A DNA stretch of 64,000 nucleotides. It comes from Massalongia carnosa (lineage: Eukaryota). Of the stretch, positions 673-64,000 are shown piece after piece. Position 1 is the stretch's first letter. Every line of letters starts with the position of its first letter. Under the pieces are notes generated by a model that saw only the letters and a program-made list of their open reading frames with translations, was not told the DNA's origin and did not search any database. The stretch covers positions 1,488,001 through 1,552,000 of the forward strand of contig OZ287073.1 of the NCBI GenBank assembly GCA_965645245.1, written 5' to 3'. Both the position numbers and the translations under genes were made by a program.

Positions 673-2297
673 TGTGCTGTCTGAAATCCGATGTTCCAAA
701 GTCCTGCAAATCCAACGCAATAAAGCAACTCGAGCCCTCTTTTGTACGAAAGGCAAGATGTTATGTGCGGGTCAAAGTAGGTGAGCATCTTGAAGTACTC
801 ACCCAAGCCACGAAGCGAGGCTGGTGTGCGTAGCCATGCAGATGTATTTCTGCTGTCTCGCAGACCCGGTTGCGATCCCGCAATTGAAGGCTTTTTTAAC
901 ATGACGGCTACCTTCCGATCGTCCTATCATCCAATGCCACTTGACGAGGAAGCGCAGGAGGCTTGGAGGCTTAGTTATCCGCACATATGTGCCTAGACAA
1001 GAGTCCTGCGTGCGTTAACTCGGCCGATCGCTAACAAAAGGGCTCGAGGAATGTTCACTTATGCATTCTATACCGAGTAGTTCGTACTCTATACAGAATG
1101 CTCCATCCTATGGAAGTATGTACTCTGTTCTCCATACTCCTGATCGGTGCAATGCTGATCCCATCATTTGAAGCGACGACGAAACAACGTGAGCACTGTG
1201 CATATTATTTCCCATATAAGTGCTGTGGTGACATCCACCAATGGCTTCTGCCGCAATTCAGTTGATCTACAAAACCGAGGCTTCCCTTTTCCTCTGCCGT
1301 CCAAGCACTCGGTAGAGTAGAGCTAGTGATGTACTTATTACAGATTCAACTACTCCATCCTCCATCCTCACCGGCCAAATACGAAGCTGGAGGAAACGAA
1401 CGAGAGCCAAAGCATTACAGATTGCCCTTTTGCCTCTTCGATACTCGCCAATTCTTCCCCGTAGTTCAGCTCATATGGCTACCTTGACACACTTGAGGCC
1501 CTGGAACGTAAAGGATGGTGATGGTGATGATGATGCATCGGCTGCGCCATATGGGGAGTGGGGAAATAGATAGATGCCTAGTACTCTGTACAGAGTACTC
1601 TATACATGTACATCGGCAGGGGAGAAAGGCGATTATTCCACATGAGTAACCGGAGTCCCATCCAGTCAGATCGGCTACGCATAATCGCGAGTACATATGG
1701 AGCAGATGACAAAATACCTATCCCCAACCTTGATCATTGAAGGTTATATATAGGATACTTGGCTAATTTTGGAGAGAATTGTGGGAGAATTGATTCTGTC
1801 ACGCGCCTCGTACAGAGTACTCAAGAACCACCCCGGGATCGACCGTCAAATCCCACGGTACGAAAGACGTTTGGTTGCTCGTAATGGAAATCCAAATGGG
1901 ACGGGAAAGCAAGAGTCCATACCGAGTCCATACCTACCGTCCTGACCCTGCCGCCTTACCCCCCTTTGCAGTTTTATCCAGCTTCAGCCCCAACGAGCAC
2001 ATACACAGTCGTGACAGTCAACCGGCCCGTGTCTCTACAGTAGTTATGACGTCGAGGATGGGAAGGTCAGGGTCTCGATTTGGGCGAGAAGCCAGCCATA
2101 GGGATGTGACCTGCAGTTGGGAACAGAAGGAGGAGCAACAAAATATTGAGGGGCTGGTGAAAGCAGAAAATGGAAAAGAAAGGGGAATGTTCAAGAATGA
2201 GAAAGACTTAAACTGAACGTGGAGAAAGAAGTTTTACTGTCACTTAATCCACTCTGCACGAACAGCGACGTTGCTGATCAGAATGAAATACGTTGTA

Positions 2298-4357
2298 CAG
2301 TGAACCCTGGTTAAAACGAACCTTTTTCCAACGAATTCGGCTTATAACGAATTTTTTTCATGGATGAGCGATTCTTGTATGTAAAATAACGAATGTCGGC
2401 CTATTGCGAATTCGTAAGCAATTTTAGAAAGTTTCTTAGTGATTCGCTATAACTAGACCTCGGCAATTACCCTTTTAGGATTAGCTGATAAAAATTCTTG
2501 ATACGTAGTACTACATGCTGCGCATCCTATCGATAGATAACATATCCTTTTAATAACCAACAACTCATCATGAATTCTTCCTCCAAAAAACGTCGTCGAC
2601 CTATCACAGATGCAGAAAACACGCGCTTCGTCAGTATGTTCAGAATAATTTCGTTAAAAGACCTTTCGGCAAAGCTCTTCAAGTCTGGTTTGAAGCTGAA
2701 TTCGGTCATACACCTTCGGAATCTACAATATCGGATATTCTTTCTCGAAAATACGATCGTTTAAATGAGAAGGAGACATTTCAACCTGATATCAAAAGAT
2801 TGAAAGCTTCTAAAAATTGAAAGCTTCTAAAGATTGAAAGCTTCTTTTTGGCCGGATCTTGAAGCGGCTCTTTTCGAATGGCAACAACGAATGCAGACAA
2901 AGCAGGCGACTGTGACGGGAGAGTTATTGAAGGAGATGGCAAAGAAAATCTGGACAAGACTTCCTCAATACTCTCATGAAGAAATGCCCAAATTTTCTAA
3001 CGGTTGGCTAGATGCTTTTAAAGCTCGTCATTCCATCTCCTTTCGTATTCGACATGGAGAAGCGGCATCAGTTGACAAGGAGACAGTGGAAGAAGAATTG
3101 AGGGACTTGAGAATTAAGTTGGCTCCGTACGATCAAGACGATGTATACAACATGGATGAGGCTGCCTTGTATTGGAAGATGAATCCGAATGGAACGTTGG
3201 CTACAGCTTCATCTGCTGGATTGAAGCTTGAGAAAGCTAGAATAACCGTTAATTTTTGCGTTAATGCAACGGGCACTCATAAACTTCCACTTTTGTTCAT
3301 TGGTACGGCAAAAACACCTCGCTGTTTTACGCGTGAGGGGATCAACGTTAGCAACCTGAATATGCTATGGCGAAGCAATAGAAAGGCATGGATGACGGGA
3401 GTATTATTTCAAGAGTATTTGCAATGGTTTAGTCGTCAAACAAATCGCAAAGTAGTCTTGCTAGTCGATGGATTTTCAGCTCATGTTGCTGGCTATCGTC
3501 AGTATTCAGAATCAAATCCTGAATCAAACGTTAAAGTGATATTTCTTCCTGCCAATGCTACAAGCATCTGTCAACCATTGGATCAAGGCATCATCAAGAC
3601 GTTTAAGGCTCACTACAAGCGAAAATGGCTAGCCTTTTTATGTGATCAGTATGATGCGGACAAAGATCCTTTTAAGAACATGCATATTTTGCAAGCTATT
3701 CGTTGGTCAATGACTGCTTGGGAGTATGACGTCAAACCCGCTACTATCGTCAACTGCTGGATTAAGTCTTTGGTATTCTCAGCAAATTACGGACCTACTA
3801 CGCAATTGCAAGCGAAGAAAATGGGCTGGACGAAAGAAAAGGGTTGGTCGAAGGCAGTTGATCAAGAGACGGAAGACTATAATCAACTAGTAAAAGAGAT
3901 GAGCACTACATTGCAGCAGTTGAAGAAGAATGATCGCATTCAAGACGTCATAAGTATTGAAAGATGTCTCAATCCCGCGGAAGAAATCATTGAGGATGAT
4001 GATGATGACATTCTTGATACTATTGTGGATGTATACGCCGAGGGTCAAATTGAAGAATCGGATGAAGATGAGATCGTCAAACCTACAGTGAAATACTCTG
4101 AAGCTATTCAAGCTTTGAGAATACTACGTACATTTCATGAGCAACAGGAAGATGGCGACATCGATCTGATTCAACGTTTGAATGCTTCGGAGCAGGTTAT
4201 GCTAAATGGGGAAATCAATACTAGAAAGCAGATGACCATTACCAGCTATTTTAGGTAGAAAATGAGATGTTTTCGTAGAAATTAAGGTTATAACGAAAAC
4301 TGGTTATAACGAATTTTTTTCATGGAATCATCGATTCGTTATAGCCAGGGTTCACTG
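2298..4357 (+). mobile_element. pogo/Tigger (CENP-B-like) DNA transposon, full length
   Basis: ~23-bp TIRs CAGTGAACCCTGG(T/C)TA(A/T)AACGAA, TA on both sides (2296-2297, 4358-4359), subterminal TTATAACGAATTTTTTTCATGGA repeats, internal DDE_1 transposase. Confidence 0.95.
2570..4258 (+). pseudogene. pogo/CENP-B-type transposase (DD37D), N-terminus disrupted
   Basis: HTH_Tnp_Tc5-like region (WPDLEAALFEW..FSNGWL..FK.RH), catalytic NMDE / LVDGFSAH / QPLDQG; apparent 1-nt loss near 2618 and a 17-bp triplication at 2795-2845 break the 5' end. Confidence 0.88.
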
Positions 4358-4931
4358 TACGTACTATTTACCTCTGTCAAAGCATACTACTCTAGAAACG
4401 ATCAGCTACGGCATGTTCCACCCTAGAGGCAGCCTCCCTGCTCGAACCATCAACCCATCCCGTATGCCTGATTATTTTCATGGAGAGGAGTCGAACACGT
4501 AAATTATGTATTCGACCGAACCTTCATCATGCCCCCGATGTGGAATCCAAAGGAATCAGCAGGCGATGGGCCTTCGTGGATGTACTCCGAATCCTCGGTT
4601 TGATGCTGCTCGAGAAGCTGTGCAGCCATGCTCATGTTGGTGACACACGGCTCACTCGCTTTGCTTTTGCGTTTCTCTCTTCTCCTCCCACACGTTTTGC
4701 ATTTTACTTTTGCCGAAGCAGATCCACGCCAAGACGGCTCTGCCGTTAATCTGGGGGAACGGTAAGGGACCGTTCCATCCACCCGATAAGGTGATCGTCT
4801 CTATGAAATGAACTTTAGTGGTTTATGTTCTTCAAGCTTTCAATGCTAGAATACAGTGGATACCTTCTGTTTCGTTTTAGCGAATCTTTTGGACGATTCC
4901 AGACTTCTGCAACAACTTTGGGCTACGGTTG

Positions 4932-6383: not shown

Positions 6384-7845
6384 AGCCGTTCGCTGGTTGT
6401 TTTTGATTCTGTGCCGATCTGGCGGGGGGTTGAGTCCAATCTTTGTGGATCTTTTGGGCCTGGAAACGAGTGATGGGTCTGGGAATGTAATGTAAATGTA
6501 ACATGAAGAAACGAGATGGTAGGAACGGCCACTTGATGTGTTCACATCTTTGGGTCTTTTTAGGGTGGGGGGTTTCTTGACTATACACCTCGAACACCCC
6601 CGCAGGCAGGGGCGCCTTGGAAAAACGTCTTGATTCTTTCTTGGGATTATTATTGTGTTAATGGCTATTTGAACAAGCCAAAGACTAAAAAGAAGAGCGA
6701 GGATCGAAAGCATTAGATTACATCCTACACGGCTGTAGTACCCCTTTCATTTATTATCTATATATATGTATCTCTACGTACCTACCTACCCACTTACTTA
6801 CCCTATTCCTATCCGTATTCACACATCTCGCCTCTTAATCCCTTCCCTTTTCCGGGCTCTCCCTCTCTCTTTCTCGCGCGCGCATTTTGCAACGCACGCA
6901 TTGCACGTAATGCGATAACCATGATATGGGATGGGTAAAGCGTGTTGTTAACTTTTTAAAAAGAAAAAAAGCCTGCGGGGGAGATTGTTTAATTTTGCTC
7001 TGGATCTCTCGGTTCTTGTTTCTAAATTATCGTTTGTCTTCGTGCTTCATTTCGGGGGGGGGGAAGTTGCTTTGATTGGAGCTGGAGGGAAGGAAAGGAA
7101 GAAAAATAGAAACGGAAGGATGAAAGAAAGGGAGTGGGGATGGAAGAGGGAAGAAAGGGTGGGTAGGTAGGTAGGCAAGCGTTGATGTTCTCTACTATTT
7201 CATTTGCTACTATACATGGTTAATACTCTTCCAGATCGCTAAATCTAGAGAAGTTGCTCGGGTTTGATGAGAACATGAGTGGTTTTTGCATGTATGTATA
7301 TTCGAATGGAAACAAGAGGGGGATTTTCTATAGTCATTCCCTAGTCTCGGCCTCTCTTCGCTCGCTGAAGGGTTTTTTCTTCTTGTTTTTTTGTTGGTAC
7401 ATAATGCTGAAAACATATGTTTTTCCATCTCATTTCACTTCAATTTTTTCTCATGAGCGACGAAGAGAAGAAGAGAAATGATTACTTTACGTTAATTACA
7501 TCATTGTCGTTGAGACAAACAATCGATAGTCAAGCTCGTATTCAAAATGCTTGCATGAATTCATTTCTTTCGTCAGTTGAGCAGATACCCTATCTAGGAT
7601 AAAATAGGTGGACTAGGCTTCTTATCAGGAGTTTTTACGACGACGACGACACAGTGAGGGATCATGCGGCTTGATGCCCGGATGGTTGCTTGTTGTTCCT
7701 GTTTCGTTGGGAATGAAGGCTGGAGAGAAAGATGGTGGGTTAGTTGTACAAAAACGACTATCAAGGGCAAACTCGGCAATGGTATGGTGGCGGTGAAAAT
7801 TACGTCAATCCAATCCAATCCACGTGATAATCACAAGCCTGCGTA

Positions 7846-10032
7846 CGGGATTTCCCGGTGAAACGCCGAACCCGGTGAAAACGCCGAATTTTAGAAAATT
7901 ACTCCGCACCACCTTACCCTCTTCAACCATGAATAACACTACCACCACCACGCCAATTGACCAAGCAATTGCTAATTTAGAATCGCAAGAGCGACCAAAT
8001 ATACTTGCAACTGCTAAGAAATTTAGCCTAGTCGAAAGTACTCTTCGGCGGCGATGGAAAGGCCAATCGGTCTCCCGACGGGAGGCTTCATCCACACATA
8101 AGCAACGCCTTACAACAGTCCAAGAAGAGGCTCTAATCTCACAAATCAATCGATTAACCGACAGAGGAATACCTCCTACCCCTACAATTGTGCGCAATTT
8201 GGCAGAAGAAATGATCAAGTCGTCAGTAGGTAGGAACTGGGCGGGAGAATTCACTAAGCGAAATCAAGATAGACTTAAAAGTCTATATTTACGCAACATG
8301 GACAGTCTACGCATAAAGTCTGAGTATGCACCTACATTCAAGCAATTCTATGATCAGGTCCTTAGTTTTGACAATATAACTGCCCCTAATTGCGTCGCAT
8401 TTGTGCCTAATAGTCAACATTTCTTCTAGTTGATCGCGGGCATCGAAAAATATAACATCACAGCAGATAACGTCTATAATTGGGACGAAAAGGGCTTTTT
8501 AATTGGCATGGCCTCTGCCGTAAAGCGAATAATGACTCTTGAAGCTCTAGAATCGGGGCGCATAACCTATGCGAGTCAAGATGGAAGTTGTGAATTCATT
8601 AGTCTACTGGCTTGCATATGCGCCAACGGTACCGCTTTACCACCCGCGCTGATCTATAGAGGCGATTCAAAGAAACTTCAGGATACATGGTTAGAAGATT
8701 GGAGTGTAGATCAGGAAGCTTTCTTCGCGGTCTCCTCCAATGGATGGAGTTGTGACCTGCTTGGTCTGAACTGGCTTGAGCGTGTTTTTGAACGATGTAC
8801 GAAGCATATGGGGCATAGAAGGCGGTTGCTGGTGGCGGATGGTCATTCTAGCCACGTCAATATGAAATTCATCAATAAATGCGATGAACTACGAATTCTA
8901 TTGATGATTCTACCATCGCATACTACGCACCGGTTGCAACCCCTAGATGTTTCATTGTTTGCCCCCCTGGCCCGGTATTATACGAATGGTCTCAATGATA
9001 TGATGTTTAACTCATTGGGCACAGTGAACATATCAAAAAGAGTCGTCTGGGGTGTTTTTTGGCCTGCCTGGCAAAAGGCCTTCAATGAAAAGAACATAAT
9101 CTCTGGGTTTGAGAAGACAGGCATATGGCCGTACAATCCAAACATCCTACTAGAAAAAATCACCAAATCGCCTTCACCAGAGGAGGAACCTAACGTCACA
9201 CAAGCACCCAAGACACCTATGACGGGACGGGCGGTTCGTCGCATACAAAAAGCCTACGTAAAAGAGCCAAATAGAGTTTTGTTGTCCAAGATATTTGCTG
9301 CAAATGAGCGTCTCGCAGCTAATCGTTCTATTGATCAACACGTAATTAGGGGCCTATGCGAGGCACTTAAAGAGGAAAAGAAACGACGAAAACGTGGTAA
9401 ACGCCTGAATTTGCTAAGTGAAGAAGATTCTGGGCCTCAATTTTCAGTCCGGGTAGGGTGGCAGCGGCCAGAGCCTATCAGGCTTCAAAAGATGACGAAA
9501 AGAGACGACGGCAACAGGATCTCGCTGAAAAACGGGCACAATTAGTTTTTAACAAGTCGCTGAAGGAAAAAGAAAAGCAAGAACGGGCCCTAGTTGCTAT
9601 AGAAAAAAAACGATTGATCGAGGAGGGTAGGCAGGCTAAAGCGGTCGAAAAGCAGGCCCAAAACGAATTGAAAAACGCAAGTACTAAGCCTTCTAAATTA
9701 TCGATGAGGTTGAAATCGACATCTACAGGGCCAAAGCAGGTGCCAAAGTGTCGAAAGCAGTCCCAGGAGCAAAGTGATGATGTCGAGGTGGTTGGTGGAG
9801 TGGAAATGATAATTTCTCGTACATCTAGGGGGAGAGAGGTGCGAAAGCCAAATCATTTTGGCGAATAGAACTTTTTTCTATACATCAAATTGGACATCTT
9901 CTATGTACATTTTACCAAAGCTTCAGTGTATCAATCGTGGTGGTTGTCACATGGTAGCAAAAAATAGCAAAGTGCCGAAATTTAGAAATTTCGGCGTTCT
10001 CACCGGGTTCGGCGTTTCACCGGGAAATCCCG
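7846..10032 (+). mobile_element. Fot1-like pogo DNA transposon, full length
   Basis: ~43-bp TIRs CGGGATTTCCCGGTGAAACGCCGAACCCGGTGA(A/G)AACGCCGAA with internal direct repeats; TA flanks at 7844-7845 and 10033-10034. Confidence 0.95.
7929..9868 (+). pseudogene. Fot1-type transposase (DD35D) with one intron and one late frameshift
   Basis: HTH (STLRRRWKG), LT..QEEALI, YNWDEKGF, DGHSSH, QPLDV; 72-nt GT-AG intron 8358-8429 with CTAAT branch; 1-nt loss near 9443 (QF-SPGRV). Confidence 0.88.
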
Positions 10033-10366
10033 TACCTGCCCAAGCTCCGGCTCGTTGTTCCGAGCCGCTTATGTTTGAAACCCTCGTAAGCAATTCCATT
10101 AAAGAAATTGAATAAATTAAATAACGTCACTGCCGTAAATATCCCGCTTTAACAAATTGCGTCAGACTTCCCCGAGTTCCTCAATCCCCCCCCATCAGAT
10201 TCTTTGACCTCCTTCAACCTCCCTCATTCCAGGTTTCAAGCCAGTACAGAACCCCTTCATCTTCTCCAAAGTTTGTGACGACCATCCTCCCTGCTTTCCC
10301 AGAAATAACCCCCAATCCCAATCCCAACCCCCCATCATCACCATTAACATTATCAACACCACCAAA

Positions 10367-11093: not shown

Positions 11094-11359
11094 GTAAGGA
11101 ATGGGGTGTATTAATATAATTTGCGGGAGACGTTTATTGGAAAAAATGATGCTTTGAGGATTGATGGCGTCGAGAAGGTTTGGATAAGGTAACAGGATCT
11201 GAGGGTCCAAAACCTAAATTACGCGGACGAGCAGCTTGGTGATAAATGAGGTAACCCTTGCTTATACTAGCATATACATAAAATAGGTATCTATGAATTT
11301 GGCTACCTGCTAATTTTTGCATCGTGGAAAACTCAAGCTAACTAGTTATAGAATGGATG

Positions 11360-11580
11360 AACCCTAAGCTAGTTGTAGAACCCTAAGCTAGTTGTAGAAC
11401 CCTAAGCTAGTTGTAGAACCCTAAGCTAGTTGTAGAACCCTAAGCTAGTTGTAGAACCCTAAGCTAGTTGTAGAACCCTAAGCTAGTTGTAGAACCCTAA
11501 GCTAGTTGTAGAACCCTAAGCTAGTTGTAGAACCCTAAGCTAGTTGTAGAACCCTAAGCTAGTTGTAGAACCCTAAGCTA
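11360..11580. repeat. Perfect 19-bp tandem array (AACCCTAAGCTAGTTGTAG) x ~11.6
   Basis: Identical units read directly; no spacers; one degenerate unit just upstream. Confidence 0.97.
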
Positions 11581-14149
11581 AATTGGCGACTCTCCGCTGA
11601 TATAAAATTCAATCTCGACTTAAGATAGTTCTTTTCCACATCATGTAGTGGTTCAATCCACCTCAAAAATCTCTATCACCTTAGCATCGTTCACATCCGT
11701 CATCAGTAGGTTCCAGAAATTTCGGTCTGACGCTCGTGAGGGGCGGTACGACCGGAAATCAGAAATGTAACCATTTAGCATTGGACGCTATATGTTATTT
11801 TCAGGACTGTTGAGGTATTCACTCAACCACTTGTTCAAGATTTTTCTTTCCACGGGCTTCCCTTGCGGTTTTTTTCTTTGAACTGAAACACGAACATGAG
11901 TTCGTGATCTATTCACCGCAAAACTCTACTTTGAAGCCCAAGGCCGTTGTGAGACCAAGAACAAGAGTTCTGGAACACTTGATTAAGATTAGACGAGTGG
12001 CAATATCATTAAAAAATCAATTACACTACGGCAAGAATCCCTGGTACGCAGGAAGAGAATGTATCCTTTAGAGCCTTCAGTTGTGTCTATTACAATTTCC
12101 ATCGGTCCTATTCGCTTTTTTTGATACTACACTGACCATCGCTGATCAGAAAGTCATCAATATTCCTTTAGAAAACTTATAAATGTAATAGTATGAATTC
12201 ATGAAAACCCTTGTCATACAATTTGCGAAATTCAATTTTTTTTTAAAGATAGCGCTTCGAGATGTACCCAGTCTACAAAAAGAGTTCTCCACCATCCCAA
12301 AAATCCGGTTGGGGGAGTATTTGAGAAACTAATCATCGAGAGATAGCCAAACCAACTGTTAGACCTCGCTTGCTCATTAAAGTCATTCGACTTCATTCAC
12401 TCTTGGTCGTTCAAGCAGCGTCTTTTCAGTGAAACGATTCCGGACCGGACGTTCAAGCTTAGCAACGCTTGCAAACTCATAGAGAGTCGCTGTATCTTAT
12501 TGCAGAATCTGACTTGGCTAATACGTTATGGATAACCTGCTTTTGCATGGATGAATACAATAGAGTATGGTTAGAGTGGTTCTTCTTTATATCGTTGATC
12601 CGTTGAAGAAGTATCAAGGCTTTACTCCAAGAACAGTAAGAGATAATAAAGATTATTGCGCTTGTTCTTCTGGTAATCGTTCTGTTTCTTCTTAATTCAA
12701 TTGAAGAGATCTTCTTAAGCGTTTTGATTCACAACCCCGCTTAAAACCTGTGTTCCTAAATCCGTGCATTAACGATCAAGATGTGAGCGCGTTTGCTAGT
12801 TTCTATGCAGGATGCGAAGAAGTCTGGATATTAAGATATATGGTATGATCCGAGGTATTTATAGTTCCTAGATCTAACTTTGAGATGCACCAGATTCAGT
12901 TAGGAGAGAACAAACAGCAACAGTGCGTGCAGTTTACCCATCATGGCTTGCACCGCCTCTCTATCAGAGACGATCGATTAACATTGGATTTGCTAATCAT
13001 ATTTATTTATTGCTAGGACGCCTCAGCTTCCTCTATCAGCATGTTGAGAAGCTCCCCTGTATCAGCCTAATACCGTATAATTTGGCAAATAAGACCCTGA
13101 TCTTATGAATCAGTTGGTCGTCGGAGGGCTATTTGAAACTGAGTCTTATAACCAGAGAGGTCTTATAAGCAGGTTCCGTATGAGGACAGGGAAGAAATGG
13201 TTCAAATGGCTGTTTGGAACCTGTTCTTGTAGCTAAAAGGGGGGTTGAGCTAAGGAGGGGTTACTTACCAATTACTATGGTAGAGGTAGGTACAAGTTCT
13301 AGAAGTTTTACAGGAAAAAAACTCTGCCATCTTGAGCTAACCGCAATCTAAACTCCTTATAGAAAAATCTTTCAGTATATCATCCAAGCATCTACTATCA
13401 AAAACTAATACATACTGTCACAACGTTTGGCTTCAGAACTACAGAAGCCAGGATATATTGGGTGCATAAGTAGCCATGCAACAGGCTCTTATTTAAGAGG
13501 GCTGCAACGATTGCTCTAAAGTACCTGTGGATACTTTAGTGGCGAGTTGTTCATGTTTTCACATTACTACAAGACTATCTATTAGAAGCATGCTCGTCGG
13601 ACTGACCGGTAATTGAAATGGAAGAGTTTTGCAGATGTGAGAGCGAAGTATAAATCGGGACTTACTTGTTGATATTCGTTAATGCTAGGGTTATATATAC
13701 CAGATTTTACTTTCCCTGAACTTGACCACAGCACAAGCCTTTGGAATCCATAGTTTATGTTGAAGCAAGGCAAAATAGACCTTCTTGGGCTATGTTGCTT
13801 CTTAACTAAGCGCTTCCAATAAACAGTCACGGATCGATTAAGAGTAGCTAATGGCAGGTGCAGAAGAGGGCGTTAGAACTGCATGATTCTTTGCAATTCC
13901 TCATGACGTAGAGGTCGAGAGTAGACTTCTAACTTTAACGCCTTGTGTTGTGAAATCAATCTTCACTTATGCATAGCAGTCCATCACTTGAACGGTTGGT
14001 CTTTGATCCGAGCAATTAGATAGCCCCTGAACAACACTTTTGCTCTTCTTTTACTTGTCCGACTGTATTGGGCTACGAAAAAGCTACGATGACGGAAACA
14101 AAACTAGCTGAGGTATCTATCATCACAACATCGTTTTACTATCATTGAC

Positions 14150-18422: not shown

Positions 18423-19343
18423 ATCCTCTTTCGTGTAATTTTTCAAGACGAATCATGAGGCGAAATGAAAAAGCTTGAGATTTAAGTCTTCTTTTAAGTC
18501 AGTCGTGTCGTCGAAATATCAAAAGATATTGTAGATTTAGAACCTTATCAGAAGACGGAAATTTTAAACAAACTTATCTTCTCGCACACGCGTTTTGCAC
18601 TTAAGGATTCATTCAACTTTTTCAGAGCAATTCATATGATCATCATGGAGCAACTCTTATAAAGTCTGTGTTCTACTCGTATCGAATTAAGCATGAAGTC
18701 AATGACTGTGAAAATATCGCCGGCTGAATCTACAAATAATTCCTTCGCTTTGTTTATCCAATTGTCATATGATTGACTCTTGATCACTTTAAGCTCAATA
18801 CTTGACATTTTTCACTTCCTCAAATCGTCATTGAGAATTCGATTAAAGATGCTTCACAATGTCGCTAGCCTTCGAGGATAAAGAGCTCGTATTGAAAAAG
18901 TCTTCGACATCGTGAATGTGACGGTTCAACCAGGATGTGGAATTGACTATCTACTGGGAAGCTATGCACTAGAAAATATCAAAGATGCAGAAAAGAAACA
19001 AGCAAAGGGTGTCCTCTCTAGGAGTCTATATAGATAATCGCTTGGCCCGATCCAGCTGCTTGTGTCTTCATCAATAATTGAACAGTTTGGTCAAACAGTC
19101 TTTCTGTCCTTTGTCCCTTTCATCCATTTGTATTTGCTTCAGAAGGTCGTTCCAATGCGTCCTTTTCAGTCCTTTCAGACCTCCGTTGATTGCCCCTATG
19201 ATTGCTTGATGGTGACCACCTACGGTTTCGGTAGAGGGAAATAAGGTTTAGCGTCCCGGAGCTTTCGGTCCCTATGACCGTCCAATCCACCGCTAAAAGG
19301 GTGAGTAACGGAAGCGGTTAGTGCGCCGGCAGATGCGCCTTGG

Positions 19344-20679
19344 CACGCGGGTGAAAAAAAAAGGGCAAGGTGAGCCGAAACTCCCCCACCAAAAATTACC
19401 TCCCCTTTTCCTTCCCCATTTTCTAACATTTCAAATGCCATCCCACTACGATACACCTCAAAAGGCCAAGGTGCAGAGAGCTTATGAATTTCTTCTTGCA
19501 ATTTTGCAAAAGGCATTTCCATCGATCCTCGAGAGATTTTTCAGCATTTTGGCATTCGAAGCGAGAGACAGGGCCATAAGATCATTCGAAACGGAGCATC
19601 TTTTAGAAGAAGACATCATTCAACGCTCGTTGAGACAAGCGGTCGCAAATCAAAAGTCACGGAAGCACAAATACAGGAGGCAGATCACATTCTACAAGAT
19701 GAGGGGCTACAGTTGGAAGGAAAATGATACACATGGGAACAATTGGCTATGGAGATTGGGGCCGACGTTGTCGGTCGTACAATGCACAATGTTATGTCGG
19801 CTGCTCTAAACTATGAGAAATGTCTGGCCTGCGTCAAGGGATGGCTGGCCGACCCACCTATGGAAAGACGGGTCAAATTTGCTCACATGATGCTAACCAG
19901 ATATCCCAAACCAGAGCAATGGGATCGCGTACGATTTAGTGATGAGATTCATTTTGGATATGGGCCGGAAGGACAGTTACGAATCATTTGTCAGCCCGGA
20001 ATATGATATCGTTGGGATTGCATAGAGCATCGTGACCCGCCTCCTGAGAAAGATCGAAAACGAAAACATTGCTGGGCTGCAATTGGCTACAATTTCAAGT
20101 CGGATATTATCTTTTATGACGTGCCGGGCAACAGCAATGGTAAAATGACTCATCAGGTGTATATTGAATCCGTTCTTGACCCCGTCGTCAAGCCCTGGCT
20201 GGAGCGTGGGGATGACTTCGTACTTGAAGAAGATGGAGACTCTGGTCATGGCACGAGCAAGACAAGAAATGCCGTCAAGAAATGGAAGGAAGATCATCAT
20301 TTAGAGCATTATTTCAATTGTGCCTCATTACCTGATTTGTCCCCTATAGAAAATTGCTGGCAGCCAGCGAAGCAGCATGTTCGAAAGTATCCTCATTGGG
20401 ACGATGTCAGCTTGAAGAAGCTGATTAGGGATGGATGGGAACGGGTGACGCAGGAATTCATCAATGAAAGAGTTCGATCAATGCCCAAACGATTGGAAGA
20501 GGTAATTAGGGCTGAGAGGGCGATGACTGGCTATTGAATAGAATGTATGTAGAATTTCAATGGTCATACGAATTGAAATGTTGAATGGGGAAGAAGATGG
20601 GGAAGAAAAAAGGGAAGAAAAGGGTAAGTTTTGGTGGGAGAATTTCGGCTCACCTTGCCCTTTTTTTTTCACCCGCGTG
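19344..20679 (+). mobile_element. IS630/Tc1-like DNA transposon with CACGCGG ends and 5-bp TSD
   Basis: 37-bp identical TIRs CACGCGGGTGA9GGGCAAGGTGAGCCGAAA extending imperfectly to ~57 bp; direct repeat CTTGG at 19339-19343 and 20680-20684. Confidence 0.93.
19435..20537 (+). pseudogene. Tc1-type DDE_3 transposase (DD38E), inactivated
   Basis: WDRVRFSDE, FVLEEDGDSGH, SLPDLSPIENCW; 8-nt insertion near 19500 and TGA stops at 19725 and 20004. Confidence 0.9.
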
Positions 20680-20707
20680 CTTGGGTGGATGTGGTTGAAC
20701 CATGACA

Positions 20708-60424: not shown

Positions 60425-62057
<1,633 letters not shown>

Positions 62058-62250
62058 TTTCACAGATACTTTTGGGGAGATTTGTGAAGAGAGTAGAGAA
62101 CAACGAGTTGAATGGTTGATTGGACTTTATTCGGAGGTCTGTTACAATGCTTGGTGGAATTTTAGAACCTGAGACTGTAAAATAAGTCGCAGACAGAGAA
62201 AAGGCCGGCGCAAGGATTTGAGTGTGGAAGTCAATTCCCAGTTAGGATTA

Positions 62251-64000
62251 GCTAAAGCAGAAACTGGGCAACGGGACAACGGGACACGCGGTGCGAAAAA
62301 TAGTTGACACACCAAAAATATAAAATAATTATGATAGGCTACATCGTTAAGTAATTGAATTTGAACACATAACTCTATTACTCTATCAAGTCTGTTTTAC
62401 TGGTTCATCTGTTGTTGATTTTCTATATTATGTTGAAGCTTTGATAGTTGTGTAGTTTTATGCGTACTGACGAGTTTCAACTTTTTTTCGCACCGCGTGC
62501 GGGACAACGGGACAAACTGGGCAACGGGACTAAGTAATTCCGAAATCATTACTTTTTGTCCACTTTAGATGATGAAGCCATACATTTTACATACAAATTC
62601 AGCTTCAAATATCATAGTAGATCATATTCATCATTTTAAAACGTTATAATCATGGGTGTTGCTAACAAATCACCTCCCACAAGACGTTCACCCCTTCATG
62701 TTTTCACCCCATCTCCACCTATCAACAACGATTGTAATCAGCCTTTTTGGCCTGGAAACAGGCCGATGGAGCTCTTTTCATTACGAAGGCAGCATCTCGA
62801 TATGCTGTTTCAAAGTCTACCCTTCATGCCCACATTCAGGGCCGTCAACCACGATTTAAATCTGATCAGTTTAAACAACTGCTGACACCCGAGGAGGAAG
62901 ACGCTTTGAAGAACTGGGCTTTACAACTGTACGCTTGGGGCTGGCCTGCTAAAATCGCTCAGTTACGTCAGATGGCCGTAGAATTACTGCGAGCAAGGGG
63001 GAATCATACTGTGCTGGGAGTCAATTGGCAACAGTATTTCTTACATCGTCATCCCGATTTGCAGGCTGAATACAGTCGCACACTTGATCAAGAACGATTA
63101 TTCGCGGAGAATGAAGAGATATTTCAGCACTGGTTTGAGCTTTTTCTCTCTACCAAAGAAAAGCACGAAATTCATGATAAAGACATCTACAATATGGACG
63201 AAAAGGAATTCATGATGGGGGTAGCTGGCAGTGCTAAAGTAGTAATTTCTAAGCACGAAAAGCAGGCCTTTTCATTCAGCACAGTCAGATAAGCGAGAAT
63301 GAGTGTCATTGATCGAGTCCATTTGTACTACCGGTCGAAGTTTACCTCTTTTCGTCATCTTCAACGGAGTCAACAAGCAAAAGGCCTGATACGATATTCT
63401 GAAAGACATTTACAGTGAAATCGCTACCAGCAAAACGAATGAACAGACAATGAACTAGGTCTTGATTGATTGAAGAAGTGTTTTGAACCTGCTACTGCAA
63501 ATTATCTACACGGTGAATATCGACTTCTTATAGTAGATGGTCATGCTTCTCATATTTCTACCGAATTCATCAAGTTTTGCAACGAAAAGAAAATAATTCT
63601 TTTGTGTCTACCTCCACATACTACTCATATGTTACAACCTCTAGACGTGAGTGTTTTTGGGCCCTTATCACGTGAGTACAAAAAACAATTGAAGGTCGTC
63701 ACTCGATTCAACGTCTGTTCAGTCGATAAGGTGGATTTTCTGAAGATCGTTCAAAAAGCAAGTAAAGAAGCAATCAACACAAAAAACGTGCTCACTGCAT
63801 GGAGAGCAATCGGATTAGTATAATACAATCCGTCATCAGTTCTTCAAAAACTCACTAATAAACAATCGGTGTTGCAAAAGACTAATAGCATCATCACCAC
63901 TATCACCACGACGAATATCACTTCGTCCTCCCGTTCTAACACTCCGACAACTCTTCAAAATTCTCACGAGGTTATCGTTGAAATTGAAAAGACACCTGCA
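62251..64000 (+). mobile_element. Decayed Fot1-like pogo transposon; runs off the window edge (left end approximate)
   Basis: Terminal AAACTGGGCAACGGGAC / CAACGGGA repeats; transposase fragments STLH, LTPEEE, YNMDEK, DGHASH, QPLDV with multiple stops. Confidence 0.9.
62285..62499. mobile_element. 215-bp MITE with CACGCGG ends and 5-bp TSD
   Basis: 23-bp TIRs CACGCGGTGCGAAAAA(T/A)AGTTGA; CGGGA duplicated at 62280-62284 and 62500-62504; AT-rich non-coding interior. Confidence 0.92.

Follow-up and report, generated by a model that had tools for sequence, protein, structure and literature searches.

A short repeat near the right edge of a 64,000-nucleotide stretch of the Massalongia carnosa genome (contig OZ287073.1, positions 1,488,001 to 1,552,000; hereafter the window) raises the question of which enzyme moves it and what duplication its insertion leaves in the target. 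The repeat occupies positions 62285..62499 (no strand assigned), is 215 bp long with about 33% GC, contains no open reading frame (ORF) of at least 100 aa and has the characters of a miniature inverted-repeat transposable element (MITE), being short and non-coding, with terminal inverted repeats (TIRs), a target-site duplication (TSD) and many copies of uniform size. It starts with CACGCGG and ends with CCGCGTG; its left TIR (62285..62317, + strand) comprises 33 bp, the right TIR (62474..62499, - strand) is shortened by an 8-bp deletion, and the inverted arms of 26 nt are 92% complementary. The pentamer CGGGA stands on both sides (62280..62284 and 62500..62504, both + strand), in each case as part of a 13-bp repeat (62272-62284 and 62500-62512). 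We conclude that the MITE is very probably a non-autonomous element moved in trans by a fungal Tc1-type lineage that has switched from a TA target with a 2-bp stagger to a 5-bp stagger at loosely specified, GC-rich sites. This is offered as the best explanation of what was observed directly, namely the copy number, the 5-bp duplications, the common termini, a transposase domain and fold of the Tc1 type, the target consensus and the branch formed by the transposases.

To determine whether the repeat has relatives, its sequence was compared with the genome (52 Mb, 25 contigs, the window lying on contig C7). The heptamer CACGCGG by itself occurs in the window at chance frequency (5 matches, 3.8 expected); the 15-nt end of the MITE gave 69 genome matches and the reversed control pattern none. 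Fifty-four matches to the MITE DNA were found, 22 of them covering at least 190 of the 215 nt. Full-length copies measure 243 bp, and the window copy departs from the majority sequence in an alignment of 16 copies by two deletions only, one of 20 bp and the 8-bp one in its right TIR. These 16 copies have a median pairwise identity of 98.3%, several are identical at different sites, and no excess of C-to-T changes was apparent among them; the MITE family is therefore young as well as multi-copy. A second subfamily combines the same 33-bp TIR with an unrelated interior. At least seven copies have flanks in common and are thus passive duplicates of one insertion, so that independent insertions are fewer than copies. 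The shared site (L015, L016, L017, L022, L023, L025/L029 and L027/L028) lies in a repeat that occurs mainly close to contig ends, of which MITE-free versions exist at C6:48174 and C18:58654. Both the window genes and the transposase homologs described below are fungal.

Exact 5-bp duplications flanked 15 of the 20 MITE-type elements for which two ends were available, the others having 7 bp (one), 4 bp (one) or no duplication (three). When MITEs and coding elements with CACGC ends were taken together, 69 of 95 paired elements (the loci fetched, a sample rather than a census) had an exact 5-bp duplication and none was flanked by TA on both sides, while shuffled pairing of the flanks of the same 95 elements gave a mean of 0.29 and a maximum of 3. 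Empty sites in other copies of the invaded repeats indicated 5 bp for the MITE copies L005 and L016 and for seven further elements, one of which also had hits at 3. The MITE L006 is inserted in the terminal five bases of the TIR of family M, a related transposon treated below, and the pentamer is single in other copies of that TIR. The flanking sequence varies between copies directly outside CAC...GTG. Taken together, these data support the 5-bp TSD as a property of the MITE family and of CACGC-ended elements, as the preliminary description of the window had proposed when it reported a 215-bp element with CACGCGG-headed TIRs between CGGGA pentamers; this element was likewise borne out.

The duplicated pentamers have 66% GC, and the symmetrised consensus of 64 sites reads T-A-N-[S C W G S]-N-T-A. 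A TA dinucleotide stands one base beyond the TSD in 48 of 128 half-sites against a background of 6.4%, at comparable rates for MITEs (10/30 half-sites) and other elements (38/98). This offset bias may reflect steps whose flexibility serves bending or a remnant of TA recognition. Several side observations concern insertion sites. Both L006 (1501-1748, MITE) and L288 (2093-3367, CACGC-type) lie at the outermost five bases of family M TIRs, which suggests that this end is a recurrent landing site, and CACGC elements are often adjacent or nested (L040, L048, L060, L102, L144). The flanks of L180 (1501-2851, family I with complete ORF) are inverted over the 12 of 12 bp shown instead of forming direct repeats, and a few further copies, including L032 and L066, have flanks that are nearly inverted; these arrangements are possibly products of rearrangement or aberrant transposition.

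Coding elements with the same ends and the same kind of duplication are present in the genome, in agreement with the earlier proposal of an autonomous plus non-autonomous system. One of them, the '19-kb' element of the preliminary description, lies in the window at 19344..20679 (+ strand); it is a 1,336-bp element with CACGCGG ends and a broken copy of family A, an autonomous sister family, and is flanked by CTTGG at 19339..19343 and 20680..20684 (both + strand). Its Tc1-type transposase gene (19435..20537, + strand; Pfam DDE_3, E 1.6e-9) is interrupted, with two TGA stops inside the match and residues 1-20 outside the matched frame. More than ten families of elements of about 1.3 kb with CACGC ends were found in the genome. 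Of 28 matches with 54-56% identity to the family A protein, 25 contain no stops, and the nine of these loci that were fetched have family C ends and exact 5-bp TSDs. Family I has a complete ORF of 383 aa, exact 5-bp TSDs at five of seven sites and copies that are 97-99% identical, with an intact transposase encoded at C9:1003615-1004763, and its sister family I2 is represented by five copies with well-kept ends. Other CACGC families also have short non-autonomous derivatives with 5-bp flanking repeats (L149 420-681, L155 426-688, L157 400-655 and L161 499-1103).

The transposases of CACGC-ended elements match Pfam DDE_3 and, at the sequence level, the Sleeping Beauty catalytic domain (SB100X sequence matched at E 2e-18 with a profile). 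An AlphaFold model (mean pLDDT, the predicted local distance difference test, 75) had Sleeping Beauty, Mos1 and SETMAR as its top 15 fold matches, and no RAG1-like fold was among the top matches. A genome search for PF12940 (RAG1) gave nothing, but its controls gave nothing either, so that it carries no weight. All 10 clade proteins scored had a catalytic spacing of DD37E or DD38E and thus differed from DD34E. The N-terminus is helical in the model and many homologs contain HTH_Tnp_Tc3_2, a helix-turn-helix (HTH) domain, with no Pfam HTH match for families A, B and I. The enzymes of the elements that share the CACGC ends of the MITE are accordingly Tc1-type DDE_3 transposases and not of the Transib/RAG type; the preliminary description had named no enzyme class.

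Homologs of these transposases numbered 389 proteins at E <=1e-10. By protein sequence match, those with a named source belong to Pyrenophora, Clathrospora, Bimuria, Botrytis, Rutstroemia and Colletotrichum, and annotations of plant-pathogen genomes list some of the proteins as 'HMG box protein'. Of 257 metagenomic relatives 80 loci were kept, a TIR was called in 58, 20 were set aside (13 for lack of symmetric ends, 5 as duplicates and 2 for short flanks) and 38 distinct sites with symmetric ends were counted. Their ends are CAC (22), CAA (12) or CTC (4). Eighteen have an exact 5-bp TSD, one a 6-bp and one a 7-bp duplication and none a TA duplication, with a control mean of 0.3; the offset TA was present in 14 of 36 half-sites. 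The 5-bp habit therefore reaches well beyond this genome. No relative was found in viral contigs. Since CACGC-ended elements and these relatives lack the 2-bp duplication of a TA target that characterizes Tc1 elements and the IS630/Tc1/mariner (ITm) superfamily (0 of 95 and 0 of 38, respectively), and also depart from DD34E, they should not be filed as ordinary Tc1 elements.

To identify the family that moves the MITE, TIRs were compared. Ungapped identity to the MITE over its 33-bp TIR was highest in family I (28-29 positions), followed by I2 (24-27), families C and D (22-23) and family A (16-17), and one MITE (L077) has hybrid MITE/I ends. Judged by TIR sequence, the mobiliser would thus probably belong to the subclade of family I and its sister I2, as one of these two or as a member now lost; the earlier expectation that a sister family was a better candidate than the 19-kb element agrees with these values. 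A different partner from the same enzyme clade is a possible but less likely source: either family C, the most intact family, cross-mobilises the MITE, or a parent with the exact TIR has been lost from the strain. Besides the stop-free matches and exact TSDs described above, family C has the terminal heptamer and an inner ACACCAAAA box in common with the MITE. Two unrelated MITE interiors behind one 33-bp TIR, which differs from that of family I at four positions, are what a common lost parent would be expected to leave, and the metagenome element L237 has a TIR identical to that of the MITE at 28-29 of 33 positions. What speaks for family I instead is that the TIR of family C resembles that of the MITE much less, that family I is present in the genome with near-identical copies and a complete ORF, and that the ends of L077 combine those of the MITE and of family I.

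The genome also contains TA-type relatives, which were used to place the switch from 2 to 5 bp. Family M has a more distant DDE_3 transposase (28% identical), with DD41E spacing, CAAGG ends and Cys motifs in common with that clade; its protein had no match among plasmids. Seven of its ten two-ended copies show a 2-bp duplication (five TA, two TT), so that the nearest TA-type relative has a relaxed 2-bp specificity (L272, L273); the TA sites show a G-TA-C bias. Families N and Q are TA-flanked with one copy each, Q being DD34E. In a midpoint-rooted tree of 31 rows, 13 rows labelled 5-bp (12 at 5 bp, one at 7 bp) were separated by a 99/94 branch from three TA rows, and family M stood closer to the 5-bp rows than N and Q. 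An 82-row version, computed as a quick tree only, gave a similar result, and 13 of 20 metagenome proteins without a stop-free frame of more than 250 aa were left out of both trees. Rows P0243, P0253, P0254 and P0262 fall between family M and the 5-bp branch. The 5-bp elements form one supported branch. According to the excerpts available of the papers cited here and below, mariner and IS630 also target TA (PMC5481204, PMC10045372), and parsimony therefore favours 5 bp as the derived state.

Under the mechanism proposed here, the MITE would be moved by cut-and-paste with a transposase supplied in trans from a coding relative. By analogy with Mos1, paired N-terminal HTH domains would bind the 33-bp TIR, a dimer would hold both TIRs, excise the element and join the 3' ends of the latter to phosphates that lie 5 bp apart in the target, and repair would duplicate the pentamer. 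In Mos1 the bent target is held by W159, R186, F187 and K190 with the TA adenines flipped out, and Tc1-like proteins have a Lys at the W159 position (PMC5481204). As a hypothesis, the wider stagger could come from remodelled target-binding surfaces, with an invariant His at D+3 and a longer loop after the RYCxxC motif as candidate determinants. At D+3, the equivalent of Mos1 W159 by motif count, His was present in 45 of 45 aligned clade proteins, while families M, N, Q and R have Thr, Ala, Ser and Thr, respectively; the loop after RYCxxC is longer in the 5-bp clade than in family M.

Several observations weigh against a 5-bp Tc1-type lineage as the source of the MITE. No exact 5-bp match was found at 26 of the 95 sites in the genome and at 20 of the 38 from metagenomes, presumably due to decay, rearrangement or chimeric contigs, and single duplications of 4, 6 and 7 bp occur. 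The window copy itself fits a 13-bp duplication better than one of 5 bp. It lies inside the subterminal repeat array of a decayed Fot1/pogo-type transposon (62261..64000, + strand) that lacks its normal 5' end, has HTH_Tnp_Tc5 in the ORF 62738-63292 and gave 52 genome matches, its intact ends being known from other copies. The flanks of the MITE are identical over 13 bp, beyond the CGGGA pentamer, and alignment of the host variants L296 and L297 to the empty site requires removal of 13 bp, not 5. The insertion therefore made either a 13-bp duplication or a 5-bp one followed by slippage of an 8-bp host unit, and because the host repeat fits 13 bp, CGGGA is no proof of a 5-bp duplication at this locus. 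Of the two pentamers on which the preliminary description had based its argument, CTTGG stands as the flank of the 1,336-bp element, and CGGGA is confounded by the host repeat, a possibility that the description itself had raised. With regard to the partner, a search of the genome for MITE-type ends and inspection of the spans bounded by such TIRs revealed no transposase between them, so the suggested transposase-bearing element with exactly the TIR of the MITE was not recovered in this genome, and the interior of the MITE has no convincing similarity to any autonomous element among the loci compared; the partner is therefore named from TIR likeness alone. Long TIR-bounded spans, considered as autonomous elements, were MITEs with nested insertions in the cases examined (the span C16:630003-634300, L076, was inspected in part only), and an origin as a direct deletion derivative was rejected, no internal similarity to autonomous elements being found among the loci compared. 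The Cys motifs were rejected as the cause of the 5-bp stagger, being present in the 2-bp family M; their segments are of low confidence in the model (pLDDT <50 at 142-152 and 195-214). Two rows that lie beyond the 5-bp branch (P0253, P0262) likewise have His at D+3. Finally, the root of the tree is not fixed, the TA rows are long branches, and the evidence consists of sequences rather than observed transposition.

Two further explanations leave the Tc1-type lineage aside. Transib/RAG elements are characterized by CAC ends, an A-rich subterminal tract and GC-rich 5-bp TSDs. That the MITE belongs to this or another CAC-ended superfamily, its likeness to Tc1-type ends being coincidental, is in keeping with its CAC termini, the GC content of the duplicated pentamers and the lack of coding capacity of the MITE itself. 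It is nevertheless highly improbable, as the coding elements found with CACGC ends belong to the Tc1-type protein family, the MITE agrees with family I at 28-29 of 33 TIR bases and has a similar offset TA rate, and a fungal genome survey reports Transib to be absent from fungi (PMC5751038). That the ends were misplaced and these are ordinary TA-targeting Tc1 elements, or that the 5-bp repeats arose by chance or from host repeats, gains something from the 8-bp host units at the window copy but is scarcely credible given that flanks change from copy to copy directly outside CAC...GTG without TA/TA in any of the 95 elements, that empty sites contain the pentamer once, and that in families M, N and Q the same TIR-based inspection does yield TA or 2-bp duplications.

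The MITE of the window lies close to a gene for S-adenosylhomocysteine hydrolase (Pfam AdoHcyase, 60474-62057, - strand). About 200 bp separate its ATG at 62057 from the truncated pogo host, and the MITE is 228 bp away from that ATG; because of these short distances, both insertions are likely to lie within what would be the promoter of the gene. In a lichen metagenome (run X5, compared over window positions 61500-63000), a diverged relative that is about 98% alike in the flanking gene region has the MITE as well, at a depth many times that of a single copy. No contig of four sequencing runs had a joint across the MITE site, and an empty allele was thus not seen among them; runs X1 and X2 span the left MITE junction and may be the source of the assembly itself, and the X5 contig ends just short of it. 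The sequencing runs listed included no RNA run. Two more pogo/Fot-type TIR transposons with DDE_1 and HTH_Tnp_Tc5 lie at window positions 2297-4358 and 7843-10035, and the TIR of the second of them shows the empty state of a site that a family I element has invaded elsewhere. Other repeats include an expanded tandem array of the 17-bp subterminal unit in the Fot1/pogo host copy L297 and a 19-bp unit in about 17 tandem copies at window positions 11302-11637.

The MITE itself is ordinary; its value is as a pointer to a widespread Tc1-type lineage with a 5-bp target geometry. On balance, we lean towards regarding this as an undescribed, Pezizomycotina-wide Tc1-type lineage of family rank in ITm that has abandoned TA and the 2-bp stagger for a 5-bp stagger, CAC-type ends and a weak 11-bp palindromic target, that converges on ends like those of Transib/RAG and on an integrase-like target geometry beside the 2-bp family M, and that may have given rise to orphan MITEs with 5-bp TSDs in fungi. 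A TA duplication is the textbook diagnostic of IS630/Tc1/mariner, which the structure of Mos1 ascribes to a 2-bp stagger with flipped adenines, and annotation rules based on TSDs would leave these elements and their MITEs outside Tc1/mariner. That a broad natural clade keeps the Tc1/mariner fold with a stagger of 5 bp and loose, GC-rich targets would mean that target geometry can change. As a 2-bp relative, family M, exists in the same genome, the switch would be dissectable, and complete ORFs of both stagger types would allow a test of what determines stagger length in DDE enzymes; a compact Tc1-type enzyme without TA restriction could also serve as a fungal tagging tool. The claim to novelty is provisional and concerns the target duplication only, the proteins already being labelled Tc1-like in databases: no Tc1/mariner group with 5-bp TSDs was found in the full-text literature searched, a coverage that leaves out Repbase, Dfam and most subscription journals.

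Compared with known systems, the coding elements resemble the Tc1 family (Sleeping Beauty, Tc3, fungal impala) in their size of about 1.3 kb, the single ORF of about 360-385 aa, TIRs of about 30-70 bp, the DDE_3 domain, possibly preceded by an HTH region, the SPDL.PIE motif and the Sleeping Beauty/Mos1 fold. They differ from it in their variable GC-rich 5-bp TSD, Tc1/mariner integration being described as '2 bp stagger, strictly at TA' (PMC5481204) or 'TA in general' (PMC10045372), as well as in their CAC, CAA or CTC ends, the DD37E or DD38E spacing, and His in place of the Tc1 Lys at the Mos1 W159 position. The D-to-E spacing class is shared with Intruder (DD38E) and with the DD37E groups (TRT, Mosquito and the 'impala' group); Dupeyron et al. 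2020 scored the 'impala' group as DD37E (PMC7325037), and the 5-bp clade may belong inside it, while Intruder matches were reported only in animals (PMC7731502). The excerpts on Intruder and the DD37E groups make no mention of a 5-bp TSD. Short TIR elements similar by description only are PdMLE1 of Penicillium digitatum (PMC8471628) and two MITE families of Zymoseptoria tritici with a 5-6-bp TSD, for which the excerpt names no transposase (PMC4522978). With Transib/RAG the present elements share the CAC ends, the A-rich subterminal tract and the GC-rich 5-bp TSD but not the enzyme, which is a DDE_3 protein with a Tc1 fold rather than a RAG1-core-like one; the resemblance is convergent. The closest parallel to the arrangement of a MITE served in trans is found within the fungi, where impala moves the MITE mimp1.
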